Below the pieces are notes generated by a model. It made no database searches. It was not told where the DNA came from and saw nothing but the letters and a program-made list of their open reading frames with translations. From an uncultured Leptospiraceae bacterium (lineage in GTDB: Bacteria; Spirochaetota; UBA4802; UB4802), in assembly GCA_964345775.1 (NCBI GenBank), contig CAYFSO010000002.1, positions 15,679 through 79,678 on the forward strand: a stretch of DNA of 64,000 nt, given 5' to 3'. Shown here piece by piece: positions 31,021 to 59,734 of the stretch (its first letter is position 1; each line of letters begins with the position of its first letter). Position numbers and translations under genes: made by a program.

Positions 31021-32388
31021 ATGAGAATACACAGTAATAATTATAACTTTTTGACCAGTACGCTGGTAGCAGGTTTTTGTATGCTTTTTTCTGCGGGTGT
31101 TTTTCAGCCCCATGTAAAGGCGTCAAGCCAATGTCCCGAGGAATTGATCAGGGGTATTCTCGGCAGCGATGAAAAGATACGGCAACAGGGCCTTGCCAGG
31201 ATAAAAAAAATTCAGTCAGCAGACTGCAAAACCAGGCTGGTAGAGGTTATTCTGTCCAACACGGATAACAGAGAAAAGCGGCGGGCAATAGAGGCGCTGC
31301 GGCAATATAAGGATGATACCATGGTAAAGACATGGGCTTTCCTGCTGGAAAAAACCGAATCATTTATAATAAAAAAGCAGGTTATACGGTCCATGGCGGA
31401 TATCAGGAACAGGCGGATCGTTCCAGAACTTGTCCCACTGCTGAAGTCACCGTTTCATACGGTTCGCGAAAGTGCGGCAGAGGTGCTGGGACAGTATGGC
31501 GATGACAGGGTTTTCCCGTTTATCATTGGGATGTCAAAAGATGAGAACCCGGTATTCCGGATGTACGCGGTGGAATCCATGAATTATATATATGATGACC
31601 GGCTGTATTACATGCTGGTTTCCCTTCTCAAGGATGAAAACAAGTCAATACGGTATTCTGTTCTGGAATGCATACAGGAAAACGATATAGAAAAAGCCTT
31701 CCCGCAAGTCAGAAAAGCAGCATTGCATGATGATAATTACGAGGTACGTATACGTGCCATGAACCTGCTTTCCGATTACCGGGACCGCAGCTCGTACGGT
31801 ATATTTGTGAAGAACCTGTCTGATAGTAATGCTGATGTTCGTGCCGCGTCGGTGGAAGCCCTTCAAAGGTTTGGGTACAGGAAATCATCCTGGGCTCTTT
31901 CAAGACAGTTGAAGGTAGAAACAGAACATCACGTGAAATTGGGCATAATGCAGGCCCTTTCTGTAATAAAACATATGGGTGATCCCGGGGGGCTTGGAGG
32001 AGTATTGCTTGAAGATGAAAATCCGGCACTCAGGATCAAGGCGGCATATGTCATCGGTGTAACTGGAGATAAAAAGGGAACGTCATTTTTGCTAAATGCC
32101 CTGGAAGACAATGATTACAGGGTACGTGCTGAAGCAGCGTATGCACTTGGAGAGTTCAGCGGGAGCGAGGTAGTCTGTTCCCTGCTTGAATTGCTTGAAA
32201 AGGATGACAGGCGTTACGTCCGATCAGCTGTATTGTTCTCGTTGAATAAAATTGATGATACAGGCGCGCTTCTGGGGTTGTACAAGATAATTGGCGTGGA
32301 AAAAGACCCTGTAATGAGATGGCGTATCAATGATCTTATTGAAAAGTTCATAAAAAAGTCTACCAGGGAATACAGTACTTTACTATAG
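31021..32388 (+). CDS. Secreted HEAT-repeat (PBS-lyase HEAT-like) protein
   Basis: Signal peptide, then over 10 tandem HEAT-like repeats (..VR..A..ALG...D...). Confidence 0.65.
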   Translation: MRIHSNNYNFLTSTLVAGFCMLFSAGVFQPHVKASSQCPEELIRGILGSDEKIRQQGLARIKKIQSADCKTRLVEVILSNTDNREKRRAIEALRQYKDDTMVKTWAFLLEKTESFIIKKQVIRSMADIRNRRIVPELVPLLKSPFHTVRESAAEVLGQYGDDRVFPFIIGMSKDENPVFRMYAVESMNYIYDDRLYYMLVSLLKDENKSIRYSVLECIQENDIEKAFPQVRKAALHDDNYEVRIRAMNLLSDYRDRSSYGIFVKNLSDSNADVRAASVEALQRFGYRKSSWALSRQLKVETEHHVKLGIMQALSVIKHMGDPGGLGGVLLEDENPALRIKAAYVIGVTGDKKGTSFLLNALEDNDYRVRAEAAYALGEFSGSEVVCSLLELLEKDDRRYVRSAVLFSLNKIDDTGALLGLYKIIGVEKDPVMRWRINDLIEKFIKKSTREYSTLL

Positions 32389-46954: not shown

Positions 46955-47160
46955 TTATAAATCTGGTCGAAGAGTGCCTGTGCGCGTGGTAAAAAATATA
47001 TATAATGACATTGTGCAAAAACCATGTAGTTATTTAAAGACACCTTTTTTTGTGTATTAATTGAAAAATGGGGCACAATATATATATACGTATTAAAGGT
47101 TTTAATCATTAACGCTGCTGTTGCATGGTTTTGCTGTAAGAACTTCCTGGAGGATACCAT

Positions 47161-47676
47161 ATGGGAATTCTTTTTTACGCATTGATCAGCCTGATCTCTT
47201 ACCTGGTATTGACTGCCGGTTCAGGGGATGTTTTTATGCTTTGGTCCATCGAAGAACTGGTTGCAGGTGTGGTAATCAGCATGTTCCTGGGGTTTGTCTG
47301 TCACAACATAATTCCCAGACCCGTGAACGTCCAGGCATTTAATCCTCTCAGGTGGATCCTGGTCCTTCTGTATGTTGTCGGGCCATTCTTTATGATGCTG
47401 ATTGTTGCGAATGTTGAAGTAATTTACAGGGTACTTTCCGGAAAGATCAATCCTGCCATCGTGAAAGTTGAAACCGGGCTGAAAAGTGAAACCGGTGCCT
47501 ATATACTTTCTAACTCCATCACCCTTTCTCCAGGTACGCTCACCATAGAGTTGGAGCCTGATACACACGTATTATACATTCACTGCCTTAACTGGAAAAA
47601 GGAAAAAGGTGAAAAGGCGGAGCCCGGGGACGTATCAGGTATATTGCATTTTTTCATTAAGAAGATTTTCGGGTAA
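47161..47676 (+). CDS. Mrp/Mnh antiporter subunit E-like (MbhA-like)
   Basis: First gene of the Mbh-type operon. 171 aa, TM helices, MnhE-like. Confidence 0.65.
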   Translation: MGILFYALISLISYLVLTAGSGDVFMLWSIEELVAGVVISMFLGFVCHNIIPRPVNVQAFNPLRWILVLLYVVGPFFMMLIVANVEVIYRVLSGKINPAIVKVETGLKSETGAYILSNSITLSPGTLTIELEPDTHVLYIHCLNWKKEKGEKAEPGDVSGILHFFIKKIFG

Positions 47677-47691
47677 AAGGGGAGATATTTC

Positions 47692-47952
47692 ATGGAAACC
47701 ATGCTTATAGTATCGGTACTTCTGTTAAGCATATACATACTACTGATCGTGATTCGAATTGCCTTCAGTCATAATGTACCGGAAAGGATCGTTGCCCTTG
47801 ACACCATCAACACCATGATCATAACCATGATGGTTGTACTTGGAGCGGTAGAGCGGAAGGCTCTTTATATCGATATTGGCATTGTATATGGTATTATTTC
47901 ATTTATTGGCACGCTTTATATTGCCAGATACCTGATTGATGTGGGGAAATAA
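47692..47952 (+). CDS. Mrp subunit F-like (MbhB-like)
   Basis: 86 aa, three TM helices, MnhF-like. Confidence 0.65.
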   Translation: METMLIVSVLLLSIYILLIVIRIAFSHNVPERIVALDTINTMIITMMVVLGAVERKALYIDIGIVYGIISFIGTLYIARYLIDVGK

Positions 47953-48305
47953 TGGATACAGCTATTTATATTCTGCTTGGAATAGGATTGTTCGTGAACG
48001 CCATGAGTATCGTGGGAATTCTGCGATTTCCTGATATGTATACCAGGCTGCATGCTGCAACCAAGACAACAACCTTTGGCAGTATTTTCATGGTGATCGC
48101 GGTGATCCTTCACAGCATAATACTGTCAGATGCTGCCAGTACCGTTATTATAATACACTCTGCCGTAGCCCTCCTGGTTGTCATTTTCACCAACCCCATC
48201 AGTGCGCATGCCATAGCCCGCGCGGCCCTGATTGAAGGCATAAAGCCTGCTGGCGCACAGATCAACGAGTTTGACGAGAAAAAGAAGAGGGAGGCAAAAG
48301 GATGA
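47952..48305 (+). CDS. Mrp subunit G-like (MbhC-like)
   Basis: 117 aa MnhG-like. Start overlaps the upstream stop. Confidence 0.65.
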   Translation: MDTAIYILLGIGLFVNAMSIVGILRFPDMYTRLHAATKTTTFGSIFMVIAVILHSIILSDAASTVIIIHSAVALLVVIFTNPISAHAIARAALIEGIKPAGAQINEFDEKKKREAKG

Positions 48306-48547
48306 TCTCATCGGTAATATTTATCATGTTGTCAATAGTTATGATTGTTACAGCCGTTCTCAGCCTTTACTTTCGCGACCTCCTTGCAAGCGTGGTGAGT
48401 TTCTCGGTTATGTCGCTGGTGTTGACGGTAATGTTCTTTCACCTTGACGCTCCCGATGTTGCAATCGCCGAGGCTGGAATCGGTGCTGCGCTGACAGTGT
48501 GTGTGTTTGTGATCGCAATAAAGATGACCAGGAGAAGAGAAGAATGA
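48302..48547 (+). CDS. Small membrane subunit (MbhD-like)
   Basis: 81 aa, 2-3 TM helices. Translationally coupled (ATGA overlaps). Confidence 0.5.
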   Translation: MISSVIFIMLSIVMIVTAVLSLYFRDLLASVVSFSVMSLVLTVMFFHLDAPDVAIAEAGIGAALTVCVFVIAIKMTRRREE

Positions 48548-49374
48548 GACTGGCAAGTTTTTTATCACTGGTATTGATAGCCGGGTTCCTGTTTGTGGGC
48601 ATACTCAGGCTGCACCCGGTTGGTGAGCCGCTGGGTAATCCCCGTGTTTTTGAAGACAGGAGCAGCCAAATTACAGACATCAAGAATGTTGATACCATGG
48701 ATGATTATTACCTCAGGAACGGGCAGACCGAAACAGGCTCCAACAACCTTGTTGCAAGTGTTGTCTTTGATTACCGCAGCTTTGATACGCTTGGTGAAGC
48801 GACCGTGCTTTTTATCGTTGTTTCAAGCATATCCATGCTTCTGTTTACCCTCGTTAAGCGAAGGGGTACAGAAACAAGCGGTGTTAGCCGGATGAGAGAA
48901 TTCCCGGATGGTGTGTCACGCGTTATCACCTTCAGTTCTTTTCTTCTGTATATCTTGATTGTTACATTTGGTATATACCTGGTTGTGCATGGTCACATTT
49001 CTCCTGGAGGGGGATTCCAGGGTGGTGCTGTCATGGCTTCGGCCACTGCGCTGCTCTTAATAAGCTCACTTATAACCAGGAACGTGCAGAAAACCAAAAA
49101 GGTATTCTCATTTTTTGAGTCATTCGGGCTTACACTGTTTATCGGCATCGGTTTTGCAGGGATCGGGGTATCTTTTCTTTTCAATTTCCTGGCAAATGTT
49201 GACCCCACATTTTTTGGTAGAACGATCGGGTTTGGCCCAAACCCTGGCTATCTCGTGTCCGGCGGCACCCTGCCCCTGTTGTCCCTGGCAATTGGTATGG
49301 AGGTGTTTTTCGGCCTGAGTATCATACTGGTTACCATGTATCACGCTGCAAAAGACGAAAAGGCTGGAGAATGA
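48544..49374 (+). CDS. MnhB-domain membrane subunit (MbhE/F-like)
   Basis: About 276 aa polytopic protein, MnhB-like, in the Mbh gene order. Confidence 0.6.
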   Translation: MRLASFLSLVLIAGFLFVGILRLHPVGEPLGNPRVFEDRSSQITDIKNVDTMDDYYLRNGQTETGSNNLVASVVFDYRSFDTLGEATVLFIVVSSISMLLFTLVKRRGTETSGVSRMREFPDGVSRVITFSSFLLYILIVTFGIYLVVHGHISPGGGFQGGAVMASATALLLISSLITRNVQKTKKVFSFFESFGLTLFIGIGFAGIGVSFLFNFLANVDPTFFGRTIGFGPNPGYLVSGGTLPLLSLAIGMEVFFGLSIILVTMYHAAKDEKAGE

Positions 49375-49377
49375 ACT

Positions 49378-49737
49378 ATGTCGGATTTCTTTCTATACGT
49401 GACGGTTGTGCTGCTGATCTTTTTCGGACTGGTGGCCATTCTCTACAAGAGAAACCTTATCAAGTTAGTTATTGCCCTGAACGTTATACAGGCAGGGGTA
49501 AACCTGCTTTTCATAACCCTTGCCTACAGGCCTGATGGGACTGCACCGATTTTTACCCTTGCCCCGGCGGTAGAGGAATTGAAGATGGTACTGCCAACGC
49601 CACAGGCACTCATCCTGACCAATATTGTTATAGGGTTTGGAACCACCGCCCTTATGCTGACACTGGCCATCCTGACCTATCAGAATAATCGTACACTGGA
49701 TATACGCAAGTTAAGAGGTGTAGAGAACAATGACTGA
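49378..49737 (+). CDS. MnhC/NuoK-like subunit (MbhG-like)
   Basis: 119 aa, three TM helices, NuoK/MnhC pattern. Confidence 0.7.
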   Translation: MSDFFLYVTVVLLIFFGLVAILYKRNLIKLVIALNVIQAGVNLLFITLAYRPDGTAPIFTLAPAVEELKMVLPTPQALILTNIVIGFGTTALMLTLAILTYQNNRTLDIRKLRGVENND

Positions 49738-51446
49738 TCATATCCCGGTATTAATAATAGCCCTGCCGCTTCTAACCGCTTTTATGCTGCCTATTGCGGG
49801 CATGATAAGTACACGCCTTCGAAATATACTGGTATTTCTGGTCATCGTGGCGGTTAACCTGATGCTTCTTTCTCTTGTGCAGCGGGTTTCCATGGGGGGA
49901 GAGGTGCTCCATTACGTTGTTGGCGCGGCGAACCCCCAGCAGGTAATAATGGAGGGGCTTGATTTTCCAATACGGATTGTCCTGAAAATAGACGGGTTTT
50001 CTCTTTTCATGGCACTGATTTCAGGGGTCATTACCCTGGTTGTTTTCCTGTTCTCATGGAGTTATATACAGGAAGGGGAGCGCAAAAATTATTACCTGCT
50101 GCTGATGCTGCTGATCCTTGTGGGAATGCTGGGTATCGAGTTTACCAATGACCTTTTTAATCTTTTTGTTTTCCTGGAAGTTTTATCAATTTCGTCCGCG
50201 GCCCTGGTGGCTTATCGAACCGAGCGCAAGCATCCGCCGTATGCAGGATTCAAGTACATGCTGGTCAGTGCCATAGCTACAAGTTTCCTGCTGATGGGTA
50301 TCGCCCTCTGCTATGCCCAGTACGGCTCGTTTAACATGGATTACATCCATGGCATGATGCAATACAGCATGCTGGATAAGATGGCAATGGTCTTCATGCT
50401 GGTTCCACTTGCCATGAAGGCCGGGGCCATACCAATGCACATGTGGGTACCCGATACCTATTCGGAGGCACCGGCACCAATCAGTGCCATGTTGAAAACT
50501 GCCAGCATGGCAAGCCTGTATGCTCTATTCAGGCTGTCTTTGTCCCTGTTCGGTAACCCCCTTGAAGGCCCCGGGATGAACTATCATACACTTGGGTGGT
50601 TTGTCATCGTCCTCGGGGTGTTGTCAATGTTCATAGGGGTAACCATGGCACTTGTGCAGCACGACGTGAAGCGCCTGATGGCATTTCACGCGGTGTCCCA
50701 GACAGGATACATGCTGCTTGGTGTTGGCGTGGGTATCGCGGTACATGCAAACGCCGACGATGGCAGTGCCTTCAACCTTTTTGGAAAGGTGGCCATGATG
50801 GGCGGGATCTTTCACATGATGAACCATGCCTTTTACAAGGGACTACTGTTCCTTACCTCGGGAGTGATGGTACGGAGGTTCGGGACCCGTGGGTATCGCG
50901 GTACATGCAAACGCCGACGATGGCAGTGCCTTCAACCTTTTTGGAAAGGTGGCCATGATGGGCGGGATCTTTCACATGATGAACCATGCCTTTTACAAGG
51001 GACTACTGTTCCTTACCTCGGGAGTGATGGTACGGAGGTTCGGGACCCGTGACCTGAACAGGATGATGGGGATGGCCCACCGGGATACGTTTACGACGAT
51101 TGCATTTATCATCGGGGCCCTGGCCATTGCGGGTATTCCTCCTTTCAATGGGTTTTCATCGAAAATACTTCTTTATGAATCCGTGTATCGTTTCAGCCCC
51201 GTATTGTCAATTATCGCCATTTTTGTTTCGGTGCTGACACTGGCCTCATTCGTAAAAGTGTTTTACAGCGCCTTCCTGGGGCCCGAGAGAAAGGACATGA
51301 TCGTTGATGAAACCCCGGTTTCACCCGGTATGACGCTGGGGATGGGAATACTGTGCGTGCTGGTAGTTGGGTTCGGGCTGTTCCCGGACCTGGTTGTGGG
51401 GATTATCGTAGAACCGGCTGTCAATAGCCTGGTAACAATACTGTGA
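49730..51446 (+). pseudogene. MnhD/NuoL-like proton-pumping antiporter subunit (MbhH-like), frameshifted by a 160-bp tandem duplication
   Basis: ORFs 49730..51052 and 50889..51446 are the two halves of one NuoL/M/N-family gene (conserved MMNHAFYKGLLFL motif) in different frames. A perfect 160-bp repeat at the junction explains the shift. Confidence 0.8.
50728..51051 (+). repeat. Perfect direct tandem duplication, 2 x 160 bp (unit about 50731-50890 repeated at 50891-51050; boundaries ambiguous by up to 3 nt)
   Basis: Read directly: gggtatcgcggtacatgcaaacgccgacga...ggaggttcgggacccgt occurs twice consecutively with no mismatch. Confidence 0.95.
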
Positions 51447-51464
51447 CAGGGGTGATGTGCTAAA

Positions 51465-51818
51465 ATGTTTACAGTGGAAAAGATATTTACTCAAAACACC
51501 GGGATAATCTGGTATCCCCTCCTGCTGATAGCAATATTCCTGCTGCTTGTGTTTATTCTGTGGGTATGGGGTCGGTATTATTTCAGGAATGATTACAATG
51601 AAAAAACAGCACAGGTAAAACCCTTTAACTCGGGAAACCTTGAGGAAATAGATTACTCAATCAGGTCGGGGAACCTTTACTGGGGCTTCAAGAAGGCACT
51701 TGACGGTTTTTATAACTGTATGGAATCACTGCATACCGGCGACCTGAATGATTACATGGTCTGGCTGTTCCTTTCCATCGGTGTAGTGCTTCTCCTGGTC
51801 AGTGGAGGATTATTATGA
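51465..51818 (+). CDS. Small membrane subunit (MbhI-like)
   Basis: 117 aa with two TM helices, at the Mbh operon position between the antiporter and hydrogenase modules. Confidence 0.5.
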   Translation: MFTVEKIFTQNTGIIWYPLLLIAIFLLLVFILWVWGRYYFRNDYNEKTAQVKPFNSGNLEEIDYSIRSGNLYWGFKKALDGFYNCMESLHTGDLNDYMVWLFLSIGVVLLLVSGGLL

Positions 51819-52270
51819 AAAAGAAACTGCTGAATACCTCGTTTAAACGGTCGTTGTGGGCATTCCACATGAACACCGGTTCCTGTAACGCCTGTGATAT
51901 CGAGATACTGGCAACCCTGATGCCACGATATGATGCTGAACGATTTGGCATCAAGCTGGTGGGTACCCCCCGGCACGCTGACGTGCTGCTGGTAACCGGT
52001 ACGGTAACCGAGAAGATAAAGGACCGTGTACTGCGTGTGTATGAACAGGTGCCCGATCCGAAGCTGGTAATAGTAATTGGCGGATGCGGTTCCACCAAAG
52101 GTGTATACCAGGAGTCCTATGCCATGACGGGACCAATAGATAATTATATTCCCGTTGACGTGTACATCCCCGGCTGTCCACCCAGGCCTGAGGCCATACT
52201 GTACGGGGTTGCCAGGGCATGGGAAAAGCTTGAATTATTGATGAAAAAAGGAAAGAAGAATGCATCCTGA
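51815..52270 (+). CDS. [NiFe]-hydrogenase small subunit, NuoB-like (MbhJ-like)
   Basis: [4Fe-4S] ligands in NuoB spacing (GSCNACD...GGCGSTKG...PGCPP). Confidence 0.9.
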   Translation: MKKKLLNTSFKRSLWAFHMNTGSCNACDIEILATLMPRYDAERFGIKLVGTPRHADVLLVTGTVTEKIKDRVLRVYEQVPDPKLVIVIGGCGSTKGVYQESYAMTGPIDNYIPVDVYIPGCPPRPEAILYGVARAWEKLELLMKKGKKNAS

Positions 52271-52733
52271 TGATATAGTAGCAAGGTTCAGCAGTGAACT
52301 GAAAGGGCATTTTACCGCCTCAAGAATACAGGAAACACCCGAGGGCAGGGATGGTTTAAATAAAAGGACCAGGCTGTGGCTCAACGTGGACCGTGACGTA
52401 TTTCACCGGGCTGTGGCTCTCTTGAAAGAATTCGGTCCACCCCATATTTGTACTCCAATGGCATCAAAAGAATACGATCAAACAATGGAGCTCATTTATC
52501 CGTTCACGTTGAACTATGCCGCGGAACGATACGGTGAACTGGTTGTGATAATCGTGGTAGATATACCCAGGGATGACATGCGCATCAGGAGTGTCAGCGA
52601 CCTGGTACCGGGTATACTGTACATGGAACGTGAAACAATGGAAATGCTTGGCGTCATTATTGAAGATATCCCTGATCCAAGGCGCCTTTTTACTACTGAC
52701 GGCCTGGGTGATTCTTTTCCCATGCGGGACTGA
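52260..52733 (+). CDS. NuoC-like 30-kDa subunit (MbhK-like)
   Basis: 157 aa NuoC/HycE-N-like fold, located between NuoB-like and NuoD-like genes. Confidence 0.75.
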   Translation: MHPDDIVARFSSELKGHFTASRIQETPEGRDGLNKRTRLWLNVDRDVFHRAVALLKEFGPPHICTPMASKEYDQTMELIYPFTLNYAAERYGELVVIIVVDIPRDDMRIRSVSDLVPGILYMERETMEMLGVIIEDIPDPRRLFTTDGLGDSFPMRD

Positions 52734-52775
52734 CGGGAACTTTTGCACTAATAACTGTATGGAGATGTTGTAACC

Positions 52776-54014
52776 ATGGAAAAATCAATAACCTATCCTT
52801 TACAGATAGGGCCTACACATCCGGCATTCAAGGAACCAGTACGATTCTCTTTCAGGATGGACGGGGAGCGAGTATCGGATGTTGATATAGACCTGGGGTA
52901 TACCCACAGGGCCATCGAGGTAATTTCGAAAGAACGTAATTTCATCCAGACCATTTATCTGCTGGAACGGATATGTGGTATCTGCTCTGTGTCACATCCC
53001 CTGGCGTATTGCCTGGCAGTGGAGGAGGTGGCAGGGATGGAGGTCCCTCCCCGTGCAAAGTATATACGTACGATAGTGGGTGAGCTCGAACGCCTTCATT
53101 CGCACCTGTTGTGGGCAGGGGTTGCCGCCCACGAGATCGGGTTTGACACCCTCTTCCTCTATACATGGAATATCCGCGAGAAGGTGCTTGACTGTCTGGA
53201 ACAGTTCACCGGTAACAGGGTTAATTACGCGCTGCTTACTATTGGTGGAGTACGCCGGGATATTACGGAAGAGGTTTTCCCCGTAATCGAGGAGACGCTG
53301 GAATACTATACCGAACTGTTTCAGCGTGCATCAGAGATACTGCTTGATGACCAGAGCATACGTTTCAGATGTGAAGGGACGGGTATACTCACATATGAAC
53401 AGGCTGTCGCGTTATGTGCGGTGGGACCCAACGCACGTGCCTCGGGACTGGCGAAGGATGTCAGGGTGGATTACCCGATACTGGCGTACCCGGACATGGA
53501 CTGGCTTAAGCCGGTAACCCCCAGGGACATTGGAAAGGAACCGGTTGGTGACGTGTATGACCGCATGGTGGTCAGGGTGATGGAGATCAGGCAGTCGGTG
53601 GATATTATACGATACTGCCTGGATAACCTGCCTGACGGCCCAATCGCGCTGGAAAAAGGTGCCATTAAGATTATAAACAAGCTTAAGAAAGTGCAGGGAG
53701 AAGGTATAGGCCGTTACGAGGCCCCCAGGGGAGAGGTGGCCCATTACGATATTCTTGATCTGAACGAGTGCCCGGTGCAGATGAAGGTAAAGGCACCAAC
53801 GTATTCCAATGCCTTCACATGGGTACCCATGCTGCAGGGGACGGAAATAGCGGATATCCCCATCGTTATCGCATCAATTGACCCCTGTGTAGCCTGTGCT
53901 GACCGCATGACCATACTCAGGAATGACGGTTCAGTGGAAGCATTGAACGCAGAGTATTTACACAACCTGAGCGTTAAAAAGATGAAGGAGGTTAGGTCCC
54001 GATGCAGTGGTTGA
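52776..54014 (+). CDS. Group-4 [NiFe]-hydrogenase large subunit, NuoD-like (MbhL-like)
   Basis: N-terminal Ni-Fe ligand motif RICGICSVSH and C-terminal DPCVACADR, followed by a 34-aa C-terminal extension. Confidence 0.92.
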   Translation: MEKSITYPLQIGPTHPAFKEPVRFSFRMDGERVSDVDIDLGYTHRAIEVISKERNFIQTIYLLERICGICSVSHPLAYCLAVEEVAGMEVPPRAKYIRTIVGELERLHSHLLWAGVAAHEIGFDTLFLYTWNIREKVLDCLEQFTGNRVNYALLTIGGVRRDITEEVFPVIEETLEYYTELFQRASEILLDDQSIRFRCEGTGILTYEQAVALCAVGPNARASGLAKDVRVDYPILAYPDMDWLKPVTPRDIGKEPVGDVYDRMVVRVMEIRQSVDIIRYCLDNLPDGPIALEKGAIKIINKLKKVQGEGIGRYEAPRGEVAHYDILDLNECPVQMKVKAPTYSNAFTWVPMLQGTEIADIPIVIASIDPCVACADRMTILRNDGSVEALNAEYLHNLSVKKMKEVRSRCSG

Positions 54015-55036
54015 TATATATATTTGTCATACCTGTAACGGTGCTTATTGCGGGCGGGATAATCGGACTGTACGCGAAGGGGATAGACCGCAAGTTGGCC
54101 GCCTATTACCAGTCCCGTATCGGCCCGCCGGTACGACAGCCGTTTTATGATATCAGCAAGCTGATGCAAAAGCAGACCATAATACCTGAAAATGCGGTTG
54201 GGTGGATATTCAGGGGAGCGCCTTACATGGCACTTGCTTCCAGTGTTATTTTGCTTGTATACGTGCTTGTCCCGTACTTCGCGTGGATCGGTGGTGCCGA
54301 TTTCTTTTTCAGCAACAGTGGTGATATTATCCTGGTGCTGTACCTTTTGATGATCCCATCAATAGCACTGGTTGCCGGAGGGTTCGCATCGGGCTCACCA
54401 TATGCAACTGTTGGGGCACAGCGTGAAATGGTTATACTCATGTGTGTAGAACTGCCTCTGGCGGTAATCGCGGTTACGTTCGCCTGGCGTTTGTCTAACG
54501 TTGCACCCGCTTTACCGCCGTTTTCTCTTGTTACCATGACAAGTCATCCGTTATGGACGGGCATGGGGCCCTTCGGCATACTGGGAGGAATGCTGCTGGC
54601 ACTGTCAATGGCGGTGGTGATACCGGCCGAACTCGCAAAGATACCCTTTGACCAGGCGGAAGCGGAGACCGAGATAGCCGAGGGGCTTCTTGCAGAATAT
54701 TCCGGTAAATACCTGGCCTTTTACCAGGTAGCTGATGGTGTAAAGTCGCTCGCGGTAATTTCTCTGGCGGTGATATTGTTTTTTCCCCACGGATTTACGC
54801 AGATGACGGGTTACGTGGTGCAGCCGGGCGGGATGGATATTACCCTCCTGGTTGATACGGGCCTATTCATGGCGAAGGTGTTTGCTGTCTATTTCGTCTC
54901 GGTTACAACCGTACGAATAGCCATGGCGAGGTTCAAAATTTCACAGGTTGCAAAACTGTTTTTGATCACCATAACCGTTATGTGTTTGGCCGGTTACGTG
55001 TTGATCACGCTTGATCCGGTTATTGCAACACTTTGA
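54002..55036 (+). CDS. NuoH-like membrane subunit (MbhM-like)
   Basis: 344 aa polytopic, NuoH/HycD pattern. Confidence 0.8.
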   Translation: MQWLIYIFVIPVTVLIAGGIIGLYAKGIDRKLAAYYQSRIGPPVRQPFYDISKLMQKQTIIPENAVGWIFRGAPYMALASSVILLVYVLVPYFAWIGGADFFFSNSGDIILVLYLLMIPSIALVAGGFASGSPYATVGAQREMVILMCVELPLAVIAVTFAWRLSNVAPALPPFSLVTMTSHPLWTGMGPFGILGGMLLALSMAVVIPAELAKIPFDQAEAETEIAEGLLAEYSGKYLAFYQVADGVKSLAVISLAVILFFPHGFTQMTGYVVQPGGMDITLLVDTGLFMAKVFAVYFVSVTTVRIAMARFKISQVAKLFLITITVMCLAGYVLITLDPVIATL

Positions 55037-55054
55037 TTCACGAGGAGCGCAACA

Positions 55055-55489
55055 ATGCTTGGTGCAGTATATAAAGTAATTGAACAGTTTTTTTCAAACA
55101 AATCAACCAATCTTTTCCCGGTAAAATATATTCCCGAATCAACCGGGGATATGCTTCAAGATGGCGGGATCAACCCACCGGTACCTCTACCGGAAGGCAT
55201 AAGGGGCCGGCTTGCGTATGATTATGATACCTGTATAGGGTGTGCCATGTGTGAAAAAGTGTGCCCTGCCAGGGCCATTGAGCTTTATCCCGTAAAGGCG
55301 GGTGAAAAGAAATCAAAGCGTATAGTAATATTTCTTTCACGGTGTACCTATTGTGGCGAATGTGTTGATATCTGTCCCAAGAACTGTATAACCATGGAAA
55401 AATTCGTGTTCATGGCCGGTTACGATAAATACGGGGATGAAATGATTATCGGATCTGCTGAACGGGTGAAGAACGAGATTGAAGATTAA
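55055..55489 (+). CDS. NuoI-like 2x[4Fe-4S] ferredoxin subunit (MbhN-like)
   Basis: Two CxxCxxCxxxCP motifs (CIGCAMCEKVCP, CTYCGECVDICP). Confidence 0.85.
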   Translation: MLGAVYKVIEQFFSNKSTNLFPVKYIPESTGDMLQDGGINPPVPLPEGIRGRLAYDYDTCIGCAMCEKVCPARAIELYPVKAGEKKSKRIVIFLSRCTYCGECVDICPKNCITMEKFVFMAGYDKYGDEMIIGSAERVKNEIED

Positions 55490-55500
55490 GGCTGAAAGCT

Positions 55501-56680: not shown

Positions 56681-57037
56681 ATGGCGAAGGCTATGATCGT
56701 GGATGATTCGAAGTTCATGAGGCGCATTATCAGGGAAACCCTTGAAGAAGGCGGTCATGAGATAGCGGCTGAAGTTGATAATGGTGTTGATGCGATAACC
56801 ATGTACAACGACATGAAACCGGATTTTGTCACAATGGATATCACCATGTGGGGAAAGGATGGATTAATGGCAATAGAGGAGATATCAGAGAAATTTCCTG
56901 ACGCGAGAATTGTGGTCATATCCGCACTTAACGAAAAAACGTTACGGCTCAACGAGAAGAATATCAACGCAAGGGCATTCCTTACAAAGCCCTTTGATAA
57001 ACAAGAACTTCTTGATGTTGTCAACAAGATCATATGA
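56681..57037 (+). CDS. Single-domain response regulator (CheY-like receiver)
   Basis: 118 aa with DD...D...T...K receiver residues (IVDDS, TMDITM, K in LTKPF). Confidence 0.85.
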   Translation: MAKAMIVDDSKFMRRIIRETLEEGGHEIAAEVDNGVDAITMYNDMKPDFVTMDITMWGKDGLMAIEEISEKFPDARIVVISALNEKTLRLNEKNINARAFLTKPFDKQELLDVVNKII

Positions 57038-58092
57038 CCTCGAACCAGTATATACAGCTGTATCAAATCAATACCGTACCCGGTGAAGCATACCTGTTAA
57101 ATGGCGGGCAGGTATTTTTTTTTGTATCTGAAAGCGACAAATACATTATAAAAGGGAAGAATGTAATTGTTGGTGCAACAGAGCTCATTTTAAAAGAGAA
57201 AGACCCCTCCATCTCCAGGCTGGAAACCGCAATTTCCACAAGGGATGCTTCCATTAAAAAGATTACACAGGAGCGCTTTTTACAGGGCCTTAATGTATTC
57301 TCATTTCTTCTAAACGTATCAATGGTTATTGCCAAACAGGTGGTGCTAACCAATAATATCATGAACAATAATGTATCAGGCCTTGATCCCGACCAGGCAA
57401 GGGACAAGGATAACTGCATTGCGTATTTTCGCATAGTTTCAAAACTAAGAGATGAATATGATAAACGAAGGCTTCCCTGGTTGAAAGAGCTTGTCTCCAG
57501 GTTTGAAACCAGCCTGACCTACAAGAAAGGTGAAGCATTCAGCAGAACTGATGAACCGGTATTGATATCAACTCCGCATGAGCTTTCTGATAACATGATA
57601 GAGTACAATACCGGATCATTTATATTCGAAGAAGAAGACATCGGAGATGAGATGTACATTTTGGAATCGGGAACGCTGGATGTGTTGATTCACGGTAAAA
57701 AAGTAGCGACGTTACAGGACAAGGGTTCTGTAATCGGGGAAATAGCCATGTTGCTTGGACAGAAACGAACAGCATCACTGCAGGCACGTAACAACGTTGT
57801 GGTAACGCGTGTAACAAAAGAGAAACTGAAAAGTACTTCAGGGCAGGAGGGGGTACAGGTATTGAAATCAGTTGCAATTTCTCTTGCAATGAAACACAGT
57901 AACAACATTATTCGTATTCACGAGATAAATGAAAGCCTTGCTGAAAAGTATTTTGGCGGGGATGCCGAAGAGAAAGTACCGGGATCTCTTGACCAGTCAA
58001 AGAACTACACGGAACTATTATCTCTTAAAAACGCGGTTGAAAAAATTGCCCAGCAGAAGGATGCTGATTACCTTGCTGACATCCTTCGCTGA
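57034..58092 (+). CDS. Protein with cyclic-nucleotide-binding domain(s), no DNA-binding domain
   Basis: C-terminal cNMP-binding fold (GDEMYILESGTLDV...GEIAML...RTASLQA) and a degenerate N-terminal copy. Start overlaps the CheY stop (ATGA). Confidence 0.6.
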   Translation: MTSNQYIQLYQINTVPGEAYLLNGGQVFFFVSESDKYIIKGKNVIVGATELILKEKDPSISRLETAISTRDASIKKITQERFLQGLNVFSFLLNVSMVIAKQVVLTNNIMNNNVSGLDPDQARDKDNCIAYFRIVSKLRDEYDKRRLPWLKELVSRFETSLTYKKGEAFSRTDEPVLISTPHELSDNMIEYNTGSFIFEEEDIGDEMYILESGTLDVLIHGKKVATLQDKGSVIGEIAMLLGQKRTASLQARNNVVVTRVTKEKLKSTSGQEGVQVLKSVAISLAMKHSNNIIRIHEINESLAEKYFGGDAEEKVPGSLDQSKNYTELLSLKNAVEKIAQQKDADYLADILR

Positions 58093-58118: not shown

Positions 58119-58658
58119 TTAAGTAAGCGCGATTTCACCCTTTTTAAGGGATTTCAGCCAGTTCATTTCTGCTTTCAGGTGGTTCTCAAGGTATGAGTAT
58201 ACATGAACCTGGGAATTATCTTCGGGATCCTTCTGTTCTTCAGCGATCTTTTCCATGATAATATCCATTTTTTCCTTGATAAATTCCATCCTGTCCTCAA
58301 CGAACTGTTCTTTCTGGTCATCACTGAGACTGTTCAGGAACATCAGTACGATATCAATATCAAAATGGATCATGTTATGCTCGAAATACTGCTTGAGCAT
58401 TTTCTTGTAGTACTTTCTCCCTGCGGGCATGATCTGGTAAATGTAACGTTCGGGATTACCGCCTTCCTTTTCAGTCCCGACTTTTTTGACCCATCCGTTC
58501 TCTACGGATTTCTTGATGGCATAATAGATTGAACCGAATTTGATATCTACGTAGTCTTCCAGTCGTTCGACAATCTTTTTCTTGATTTCATAACCGTAGA
58601 GGTTTTCTTCCATGAGCAGTCCGAGTATGGTGATTTCAATTTTCATGGTGTACCTCAC
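58119..58658 (-). CDS. PadR-family transcriptional regulator with extended C-terminal domain
   Basis: N-terminal winged HTH with PadR signature (LLMEENLYGYEI...GWV). Confidence 0.75.
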   Translation of the reverse strand: MRYTMKIEITILGLLMEENLYGYEIKKKIVERLEDYVDIKFGSIYYAIKKSVENGWVKKVGTEKEGGNPERYIYQIMPAGRKYYKKMLKQYFEHNMIHFDIDIVLMFLNSLSDDQKEQFVEDRMEFIKEKMDIIMEKIAEEQKDPEDNSQVHVYSYLENHLKAEMNWLKSLKKGEIALT

Positions 58659-58863
58659 ATCGCCTTTTCATTTTAATAATGATAATAATATAAATTAATA
58701 TATTAAAGAAATCAATGACATTATGTAATATAATAAAAAAAACATTCATAAAATTTAAATTTTATTATAAAATATTAAACCATGATAGTCAAAATTTAAT
58801 ACTATTGAAAGGGACGCGTGTTGCAGCATTTGAAAGGATAAATAGATGTTGTTATATTTATAG

Positions 58864-58879
58864 TGACGTAATAGCGTCA
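58864..58879. promoter_or_regulatory. Inverted repeat TGACG-N6-CGTCA in the divergent PadR / flagellin-like intergenic region, 22 nt upstream of the flagellin-like start codon
   Basis: Read directly. The 5-bp arms are perfectly complementary. Confidence 0.3.
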
Positions 58880-58900: not shown

Positions 58901-59734
58901 ATGCAAGACAATATAAATAAAATATCACGGTTTATGCTTTTTCCACTATTGCTGGTAAGTATAACCATTTTTCCGGGAGCTGGTAGTGGGGATCCCATGT
59001 CCTACATGATAATGCCCAAGGCCAGTAACGTGGTTATTTACGGCAGTGGCAGCGACTATTTCGTTGTAAGGAAACAACATTTTCTGAATATGAATATACG
59101 GGAAAATATTCAAAAGCTTTCATCGGGTCTCAGGATTGTTACTCCCCAGGTTGATCCTGCAGGGTTCGCCGTTGCAGAGAAAATGGAATCCATACTGCAG
59201 CAGGTTAAGCAGCAATCAGTGAACGAAGAAGACATGCGGAATTACATGAAATTCGTAGAATCTGCATTGAAACAGGACTCCGATATACTTATGAGAATGC
59301 GTCAGCTGGTTTTGCGTGCATCGGGGGGAATTTTAAATACAGATGATCGGCAACTGGTGCAATCTGAAATTGACATGATGAAAGAGGCGATAAACCATAA
59401 TGCACGGTTCAGCACGTTTAACACCAAAAAGGTTATTCCCGATCTAACAGCTGATGAACTGGGAGTACAGGATGTGAACGTGGTGAGAACCCCTCACCAT
59501 GCAATTGATAAAATTGATAATGCCATGCAAAGGATACAGCGTATGCGATCCCGGCTGGGTACGCAGGATAATATTCTTAAGATGCGTATTCAGGGTAAAA
59601 AGCTATATTACGTAAACCTGCAGGCTGCGGAAAGCAATATCAGGGATCTTGACATGGCGTCAGAGATAAGAAAAATGATCACGAATAAGACACTTTTAAA
59701 AACCCAGTACGGCCTGATCCTCTATAACAAATAA
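58901..59734 (+). CDS. Flagellin-family protein (D0/D1 core only) with an N-terminal signal-peptide-like hydrophobic extension
   Basis: Flagellin N-domain (SSGLRI...DPAG.AVAEKM...MR.L...A..G) and C-domain (MRSRLGTQDN...NLQAAESNIRDLDMASEI) signatures. Residues 10-30 (FMLFPLLLVSITIFPGAGSG) look like a Sec signal. Confidence 0.7.
   Translation: MQDNINKISRFMLFPLLLVSITIFPGAGSGDPMSYMIMPKASNVVIYGSGSDYFVVRKQHFLNMNIRENIQKLSSGLRIVTPQVDPAGFAVAEKMESILQQVKQQSVNEEDMRNYMKFVESALKQDSDILMRMRQLVLRASGGILNTDDRQLVQSEIDMMKEAINHNARFSTFNTKKVIPDLTADELGVQDVNVVRTPHHAIDKIDNAMQRIQRMRSRLGTQDNILKMRIQGKKLYYVNLQAAESNIRDLDMASEIRKMITNKTLLKTQYGLILYNK

Follow-up and report, generated by a model that had tools for sequence, protein, structure and literature searches.

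Flagellins are the classic cargo of flagellar type III export. The export signal, the site for the chaperone and the interface for polymerisation all lie in their D0 ends, which are disordered; in FliC the type III export signal sits at the extreme N-terminus, FliS binds to the C-terminal D0 helix, and the D0 coiled coil forms the inner tube of the filament. Here I describe a flagellin-family gene whose product seems to leave the cytoplasm by another route, the general secretory (Sec) pathway. The gene lies on the forward strand, near the end of a 64,000-nucleotide stretch from an uncultured Leptospiraceae bacterium (assembly GCA_964345775.1, contig CAYFSO010000002.1, positions 15,679 to 79,678), which as a whole is called the window below. 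I propose, with a probability of about one half, that its product is a Sec-exported D1 bundle with rebuilt chain ends, serving as an accessory factor of the periplasmic flagellum.

The closest described protein is the spirochaete core flagellin FlaB, for example that of Leptospira biflexa (PDB 9lrz, 9ls0, 6pwb), which is the best Foldseek match and is among the best PDB sequence matches (E = 4.5e-25). Both proteins have the same Pfam domains and a D1 helical bundle without D2/D3, both come from the same phylum, and the motifs KLSSGLRI, RxR and AAESRIRDxDMA are common to them. However, FlaB starts at MIINHN, has no signal peptide and is a substrate of flagellar type III export, its D0 helices are complete and end in VLQLL, it carries a hairpin insert of about 44 residues, and its identity to the family described here is about 30%. 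The spirochaete filament is periplasmic, and the Sec-exported proteins attached to it determine how it curves (PMC13144727, PMC7065911). FlaA, FcpA, FcpB, FlaAP and FlaL1/2 carry Sec signals for signal peptidase I (SPI) and assemble in the periplasm on the FlaB core; of these, FlaA has been described as having no relation to FlaB, and FlaL1 has a HEAT-repeat fold (PMC13144727, PMC7065911, bioRxiv 10.64898/2026.02.04.703737). The delivery of FlaA, FcpA and FcpB would thus be like that proposed here, yet I find no kinship in sequence or fold between these proteins and the family. FlaL1 and FlaL2 of Treponema are 'flagellar lattice' proteins that are not presented as flagellin homologues, and other lattice components are mainly beta-sheet.

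Flagellin-family proteins with other roles do exist, among them Campylobacter FlaC, a D0/D1-only protein of about 250 amino acids with a non-filament role. Vibrio FlaE and FlaF (flagellin-homologous proteins, FHPs) resemble the present family in being flagellin homologues that do not build the filament, but they have canonical termini and no Sec-type signal, and they exit via the flagellin transport channel (PMC6692518). Among the sequences that I collected, the mini-flagellins P0141, P0145, P0220 and P0255 (240-250 amino acids) share a compact D1, a short FNTKKVI-D-T connector and the lack of a hairpin insert with the window protein (for P0141, 36% identity across 205 residues and 2 gap positions), but both of their ends are canonical (MKINTNI... 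and ...ALDLLRGV) and a signal peptide is lacking. Against the hook-filament junction protein FlgL, which is exported by type III secretion and has an extra domain besides its D0 helices, the window protein scores 70 bits, far below the cutoff of 127. Full-text searches of the literature brought up no report of a Sec signal on any flagellin homologue.

Evidence for a signal peptide on a flagellin paralogue

The open reading frame (ORF) starts with ATG, ends with TAA and encodes 277 amino acids; an identical protein was called on the JGI contig Ga0153774_1000510. The initial annotation, which was made from the letters of the DNA alone, had seen flagellin signatures at both ends of this protein, and Pfam bears this out: Flagellin_N (PF00669) matches residues 65-178 (E = 4.7e-19, 69.2 bits against a cutoff of 26.6) and Flagellin_C (PF00700) residues 202-270 (E = 3.3e-9, 37.4 bits against 23). 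With both terminal domain models above their gathering scores and a D1 four-helix-bundle fold, the protein belongs to the flagellin superfamily. These two are the only Pfam domains above cutoff in the protein, which shows no homology to a known sheath family. As the first match begins at profile position 20 and the second ends at position 69 of 86, both outer ends of a canonical flagellin are missing or divergent. None of the 25 listed NCBIfam flagellin and FlgL models reaches its curated cutoff (the best, NF009444, at 92.4 bits against 332). The protein thus departs from filament-forming flagellins (FliC, Hag, FlaB) in its N-terminus, in its C-terminus and in the curated cutoffs, and it is probably a flagellin paralogue rather than a normal filament subunit. 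An orphan gene that scores so far below the NCBIfam flagellin cutoffs (92 bits against at least 332) could be a decaying, functionless paralogue, but the ORF is intact in 25 loci, it has invariant residues of its own, and identity across 24 species is 37-83%, so that decay is essentially excluded.

Residues 1-30, MQDNINKISRFMLFPLLLVSITIFPGAGSG, consist of an n-region with K7 and R10, the h-region FMLFPLLLVSITIF and the c-region PGAGSG, with cleavage predicted near residues 28-30 by the -3/-1 rule; AlphaFold2 (AF2) models residues 3-23 as a helix. The charged start and hydrophobic stretch that had been noticed at first sight are therefore real: the best 10-residue Kyte-Doolittle mean is 2.62, against 0.2-0.9 in seven canonical spirochaete flagellins. 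The extension is likewise no peculiarity of one gene, which the initial annotation had considered. In an alignment of 41 members, one or two basic residues are followed by a hydrophobic stretch, a region of small residues and then a conserved SYxIxP segment, and 40 of the 41 have a signal-like N-terminus, the sole exception, P0036, being an apparently truncated gene call. The same holds for 25/25 genomic loci from which ORFs were extracted independently. The hydropathy peak before Pro39 has a median of 2.97 and is at least 2.39 in 40/41 members, and the signal-like character persists down to 37% identity.

No conserved cysteine of a lipobox is found at the c-region across the 41-member alignment, nor is a twin arginine conserved across the family (P0030 alone shows RR, at a site where its relative P0040 carries RS). 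A lipoprotein signal and a signal for twin-arginine translocation (Tat) are both ruled out on these grounds, and the segment therefore looks like a Sec/SPI signal. AxA-like c-regions are common, and most members have small residues at -3/-1 (VRA|G, LPA|A, AGA|A, LFA|E, LSA|Q). On the strength of these sequence features, Sec export followed by cleavage of the signal is quite probable, and a periplasmic location hardly less so. The hydrophobic N-terminus could instead be an uncleaved signal anchor that tethers the domain to the outer face of the inner membrane. Uncharged runs do reach 20-30 residues in some members, and the PGAGSG of the window protein is not a textbook AxA site; yet the hydrophobic cores mostly span about 12-15 residues, often with a proline, and the small residues at -3/-1 also speak for cleavage, which makes an anchor improbable.

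Could the true start be one of the internal methionines M33, M36 or M38, giving an ordinary flagellin exported by type III secretion, as the initial annotation had allowed? The Shine-Dalgarno sequence before the ATG at 58901 is weak, GGGGA stands 4 nt before the M33 codon, and a start at M38 would leave about 35 residues before LSSGLRI, where about 30 are canonical. However, methionine occurs at these three positions in only 2/41, 11/41 and 9/41 members, respectively, and any methionine within residues 31-39 in only 5/33 distant members. The ATG-CAA start, in contrast, is aligned at the DNA level in the window and its three closest relatives, with an upstream AGGAGG in two close relatives and GGAG in one, and strong ribosome sites precede the signal-start methionine in L009 and L010 too. 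The 90-nt signal-coding stretch diverges strongly among four close relatives with zero indels, and therefore behaves as translated sequence. Moreover, a putative start at M38 would not yield a canonical N-terminus of the MIINHN type, as what follows is not a canonical N-terminal D0. The C-terminal D0 is truncated regardless of the start, and the signal character is kept down to 37% identity. I therefore reject an internal start, which is very nearly as well excluded as decay.

Rebuilt chain ends around the D1 core

AF2 was run twice, on the full-length protein with 41 sequences and on the mature form with 22, and gave the same picture both times. Residue numbers are those of the full-length protein; the mature model shows the elements 30 residues lower. 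Directly after the signal stands a family-specific module in which Pro39 is invariant and Tyr47 nearly so, and which both models fold into strands at residues 34-39, 44-49 and 52-57. These three predicted beta strands stand where the canonical N-terminal D0 helix has its first half: in the alignment with canonical spirochaete flagellins, VVIYGSGSDYFVV stands opposite MIINHNMSAMYAQ of FlaB, and about 12 residues are gained beyond the signal. The rebuilt segments abound in proline and glycine, which make up 16.6% of the N-terminal one against 2.1% in the canonical N-terminal D0. The initial annotation had called the N-terminal D0 helix divergent, to which can now be added that the C-terminal D0 end is altered as well. 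There the canonical last eleven or so residues, QANQxPQxVLQLL in FlaB, are absent, and a family-specific ending with an invariant Gly271 (41-sequence alignment) is predicted to form a beta hairpin, with strands at 263-268 and 271-276.

The core between these ends is conventional. The D1 helices are long and confidently modelled, with a predicted local distance difference test (pLDDT) of 85-93, 18 columns are invariant across the family and FlaB alike, and the RxR and AAESxIRDxDMA motifs are retained. The short connector FNTKKVIPDLTADELGV stands in place of the beta hairpin and loop, about 44 residues long, that are inserted in spirochaete FlaB; alignment and models also agree with the earlier claim that a variable D2/D3 domain is absent.

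The family is well delimited. A search of 5.8 billion protein clusters gave a subfamily (P0001-P0055; E between 1e-173 and 1e-55, 40-83% identity, 257-303 amino acids) and then a sharp gap, below which ordinary spirochaete FlaB-type flagellins appear at E of about 1e-26 and about 30% identity. A profile search of 1.84 billion representatives at 50% identity gave about 22 end-to-end matches at E <= 1e-54, followed by ordinary flagellins at about 1e-47 or weaker, which align only from about profile position 55. The signal is also present in the outliers P0132, P0135, P0138 and P0142. In a scan of GTDB with one genome per species I found 24 loci, all in metagenome-assembled genomes (MAGs), labelled Leptospiraceae, Leptospirales, Leptonemataceae, Spirochaetota, Spirochaetaceae or Sediminispirochaeta. 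The databases name the members only 'flagellin' or 'hypothetical protein'.

A few relatives are worth recording for their architecture. P0139 (272 amino acids) has a family-like D1, 38% identical over 206 residues without a gap, with a canonical-looking MVVNVNISAINSHR after a hydrophobic N-terminal extension and an aberrant C-terminus; judged by its sequence, it may represent an intermediate stage of evolution, or its start may have been called wrongly. P0133 (1101 amino acids) has two tandem flagellin units, of which the first contains a large insert with the HExxH motif IAHEFTH; to my own reading, this insert would be reminiscent of flagellinolysin. At locus L027, finally, a pair of flagellin-like genes stands in tandem on a contig whose label assigns it to an uncultured Myxococcales MAG; Myxococcales are usually considered to lack flagella.

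A proposed accessory flagellar role and its alternatives

The predicted Sec signal, the loss of the canonical N-terminus and a truncated C-terminal D0 all speak against a core subunit that passes through the flagellar channel. Under the proposal made here, the cleavable signal would direct the chain, still unfolded, through the inner membrane, and in the periplasm the mature protein of about 247 amino acids would fold as a self-contained flagellin D1 helical bundle. The N-terminal beta meander and the C-terminal beta hairpin would take the place of the long D0 coiled-coil ends and probably close the base of the bundle. Having arrived by Sec, the accessory factor would attach to FlaB or to the filament by D1 contacts of the flagellin type. 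Such a role is favoured since the core D1 signature residues are kept and the family was found only in MAGs labelled as spirochaetes, with their periplasmic filaments; a flagellum-associated role of some kind seems to me close to an even bet. More tentatively, a duplicated core flagellin may have become a Sec-delivered component of the periplasmic flagellum, its D1 bundle and beta module docking from the periplasmic side on the filament of FlaB, on the filament tip or on FlaB subunits and so tuning assembly, curvature or the placement of the sheath.

Next in rank comes the possibility, a minority one, that the flagellin fold has been repurposed for a periplasmic or surface protein, binding or structural, that is unrelated to the filament, for example by binding polysaccharide or peptidoglycan or by self-polymerisation. 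The variable, non-flagellar gene context and the lack of a sigma-28 promoter (see below) fit this possibility, as does the rebuilding of the D0 that is needed for incorporation into a filament. Structures of the Sphingomonas 'cell-surface flagellin' (3k8v, 3k8w, 2zbi) are among the fold and sequence matches, and Vibrio FlaE and FlaF, which bind exopolysaccharide in the biofilm, offer a precedent (PMC6692518). However, the known precedents exit by the flagellar export channel and not by Sec, and repurposing fits less well with the retention of core D1 signature residues common with FlaB and with a family found only in spirochaete-labelled MAGs, where filaments are periplasmic. The initial annotation had left the choice between a periplasmic, 'spirochete-style' flagellin variant and a repurposed fold; as a pair these alternatives stand, but the label 'spirochete-style' is imprecise, as ordinary spirochaete FlaB carries no Sec signal and is itself exported by type III secretion.

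Several observations count against an accessory factor of the periplasmic flagellum. A flagellin-fold sheath protein is not among the components of the published filament structures of Leptospira and Treponema (PMC13144727, PMC7065911, bioRxiv 10.64898/2026.02.04.703737), and the GTDB scan, which used two peptide patterns and could overlook very divergent members, gave no member in cultured Leptospira, Leptonema or Turneriella. All-against-all clustering of ORFs within 6 kb of the 25 loci gave no shared neighbour. The signal call comes from a hydropathy and charge heuristic script of my own, combined with conservation, and the Shine-Dalgarno sequence of the window itself is degraded to TGGCGA. 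The rebuilt ends are modelled with moderate confidence in the N-terminal strands (pLDDT about 60-75) and low confidence in the C-terminal ones (44-56), and the conservation of D1 residues may serve the stability of the fold instead of contacts.

If the proposal holds, no flagellin-fold protein would have been shown before this one to travel by general secretion, and none of the sheath- or lattice-type factors before it would have descended from the core subunit. A Sec signal together with a beta cap in place of the D0 ends would make the D1 bundle deliverable, and usable, apart from the flagellar channel. For the curvature of the Leptospira filament, factors still to be identified are postulated ('protein X', PMC13144727). 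In the environmental Leptospirales, which have been little studied, a periplasmic protein derived from flagellin is a candidate for one more factor associated with the filament; the family is so far known only from uncultured organisms. For annotation it calls for caution, as counting genes that carry the database labels mentioned above as filament subunits would be wrong.

Promoter, gene neighbourhood and other features of the window

Table 1. Positions of the gene, its parts and other features (window coordinates unless a locus is named)
Feature	Position	Strand	Basis or remark
Signal-bearing flagellin-family protein, complete gene, 277 aa	58901..59734, stop included	+	ORF, Pfam
Sec/SPI-type signal-peptide-like segment, residues 1-30	58901..58990	+	family-wide conserved property, not sequence; indel-free among four close relatives
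Family-specific N-terminal module SYxIxPxxSNxxIYGxGxxYFVL, residues 31-57	58991..59071	+	alignment, AF2
N-terminal D0 helix remnant and conserved KLSSGLRI-DDPAG turn, residues 58-85	59072..59155	+	alignments, AF2
N-terminal D1 helices, residues 86-170	59156..59410	+
Short connector, residues 171-197	59411..59491	+	alignment with FlaB
C-terminal D1 helix and C-terminal D0 remnant, NLQAAESxIRDLDMA motif, residues 198-262	59492..59686	+	Pfam, alignments, AF2
Family-specific C-terminus TLLKxxYGxIL, predicted beta hairpin, residues 263-277	59687..59731	+	alignment, AF2
Sigma-70-like promoter TTGAAA-17 nt-TATATT, TG before -10	58830..58858	+	consensus scan, 10/12
Sigma-54-type element, probably chance	58810-58825		14/16 match to TGGCACG-N4-TTGCW
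PadR-proximal two thirds of intergenic region	58659-58812		about 97% identical in three species
Sigma-70-like promoter TTGACT-17-TATAAT	58792-58764	-	within PadR-proximal stretch
Inverted repeat ATAGT-N11-ACTAT	58785-58805		within PadR-proximal stretch
Perfect palindrome TGACG-N6-CGTCA	58864-58879		presumed 5' untranslated region
PadR regulator	58119-58658	-	Pfam; divergent from flagellin-like gene
CheY-like receiver	56681-57037		Pfam; overlaps cNMP-binding gene
cNMP-binding protein	57034-58092		Pfam
cNMP-binding genes near member, L033	10176-12119, 15003-15608
cNMP-binding gene near member, L034	11802-12251
Tandem flagellin-like genes, L027	148-858, 1210-1920
HEAT-repeat protein	31021-32388	+	signal-peptide-like N-terminus
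MptE-like domain (PF01973) protein, 511 aa	10776-12311	-
Mrp/Mbh-type [NiFe] hydrogenase and antiporter cluster	~47000-55500	+

The putative sigma-70-like promoter, a consensus match only, lies about 43 nt upstream of the start codon. It is conserved in four close relatives, and in L002, L003 and L038 the hexamers are kept while their surroundings diverge; transcription therefore likely starts upstream of the annotated ATG. Many upstream regions of other members look sigma-70-like too, and a sigma-28 motif was found in none of the 24 upstream regions scanned, by which a sigma-28 flagellar promoter is rejected. The flaA promoter is likewise sigma-70-like and is not known to carry a sigma-28 motif. 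The sigma-54-type element AGGGACGCGTGTTGCA, about 75 nt upstream of the gene, is probably due to chance, as it is absent in the closest relatives and similar scores occur on the wrong strand elsewhere.

In the same intergenic region, the PadR-proximal two thirds are about 97% identical in three species in which the flanking proteins are only 75-90% identical. A minus-strand sigma-70-like promoter and an inverted repeat lie within this stretch, and going by the sequence it is probably the promoter and operator of the PadR gene. The perfect palindrome in the presumed 5' untranslated region is specific to the species of the window.

The neighbours named in the initial annotation, a divergent PadR regulator and a pair consisting of a CheY-like receiver and a protein binding cyclic nucleotide monophosphates (cNMP), were recovered with Pfam; downstream follow RuvA, RuvC and YebC. 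The Pfam tables, which cover about 7-14 kb and about 24-64 kb of the window, contain no flagellar gene, in line with what had been stated for the surroundings of the gene, which is a true orphan. Many spirochaete flaA and flaB genes are orphans as well. The PadR/CheY/cNMP/RuvABC surroundings are kept only in the closest relatives, L002-L004 and L038 (73-83% identity), and three distant members sit among unrelated housekeeping genes. Since this synteny is confined to the closest relatives, the PadR, CheY and cNMP-binding proteins are not functional partners of the family, and a link to them or to RuvABC is rejected for the family as a whole. An apparent cluster of neighbours shared by 12 loci turned out to be an antisense ORF inside the flagellin-like gene itself. 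In three gene neighbourhoods that otherwise have nothing in common, genes with a cNMP-binding domain lie no more than a few kb from a member; this may merely reflect how common such genes are in Leptospirales.

Elsewhere in the window, the HEAT-repeat protein has the signal-peptide-like N-terminus MRIHSNNYNFLTSTLVAGFCMLFSAGVFQPHVKA; the Treponema denticola sheath protein FlaL1 is likewise a HEAT-repeat protein (bioRxiv 10.64898/2026.02.04.703737), a likeness in repeat type. The gene for the MptE-like protein adjoins those for CoaE, a SPOR-domain protein and GyrA. Its family (PF01973) presumably includes motility-accessory (Maf) proteins tied to the glycosylation of flagellin. At about 47000-55500 lies a complete cluster for a membrane-bound [NiFe] hydrogenase and antiporter (MnhE/F/G, MbhD/E, a proton-antiporter subunit, the small and large hydrogenase subunits, a NuoH-like and a 4Fe-4S protein), and this gene content would point to an anaerobic lifestyle.
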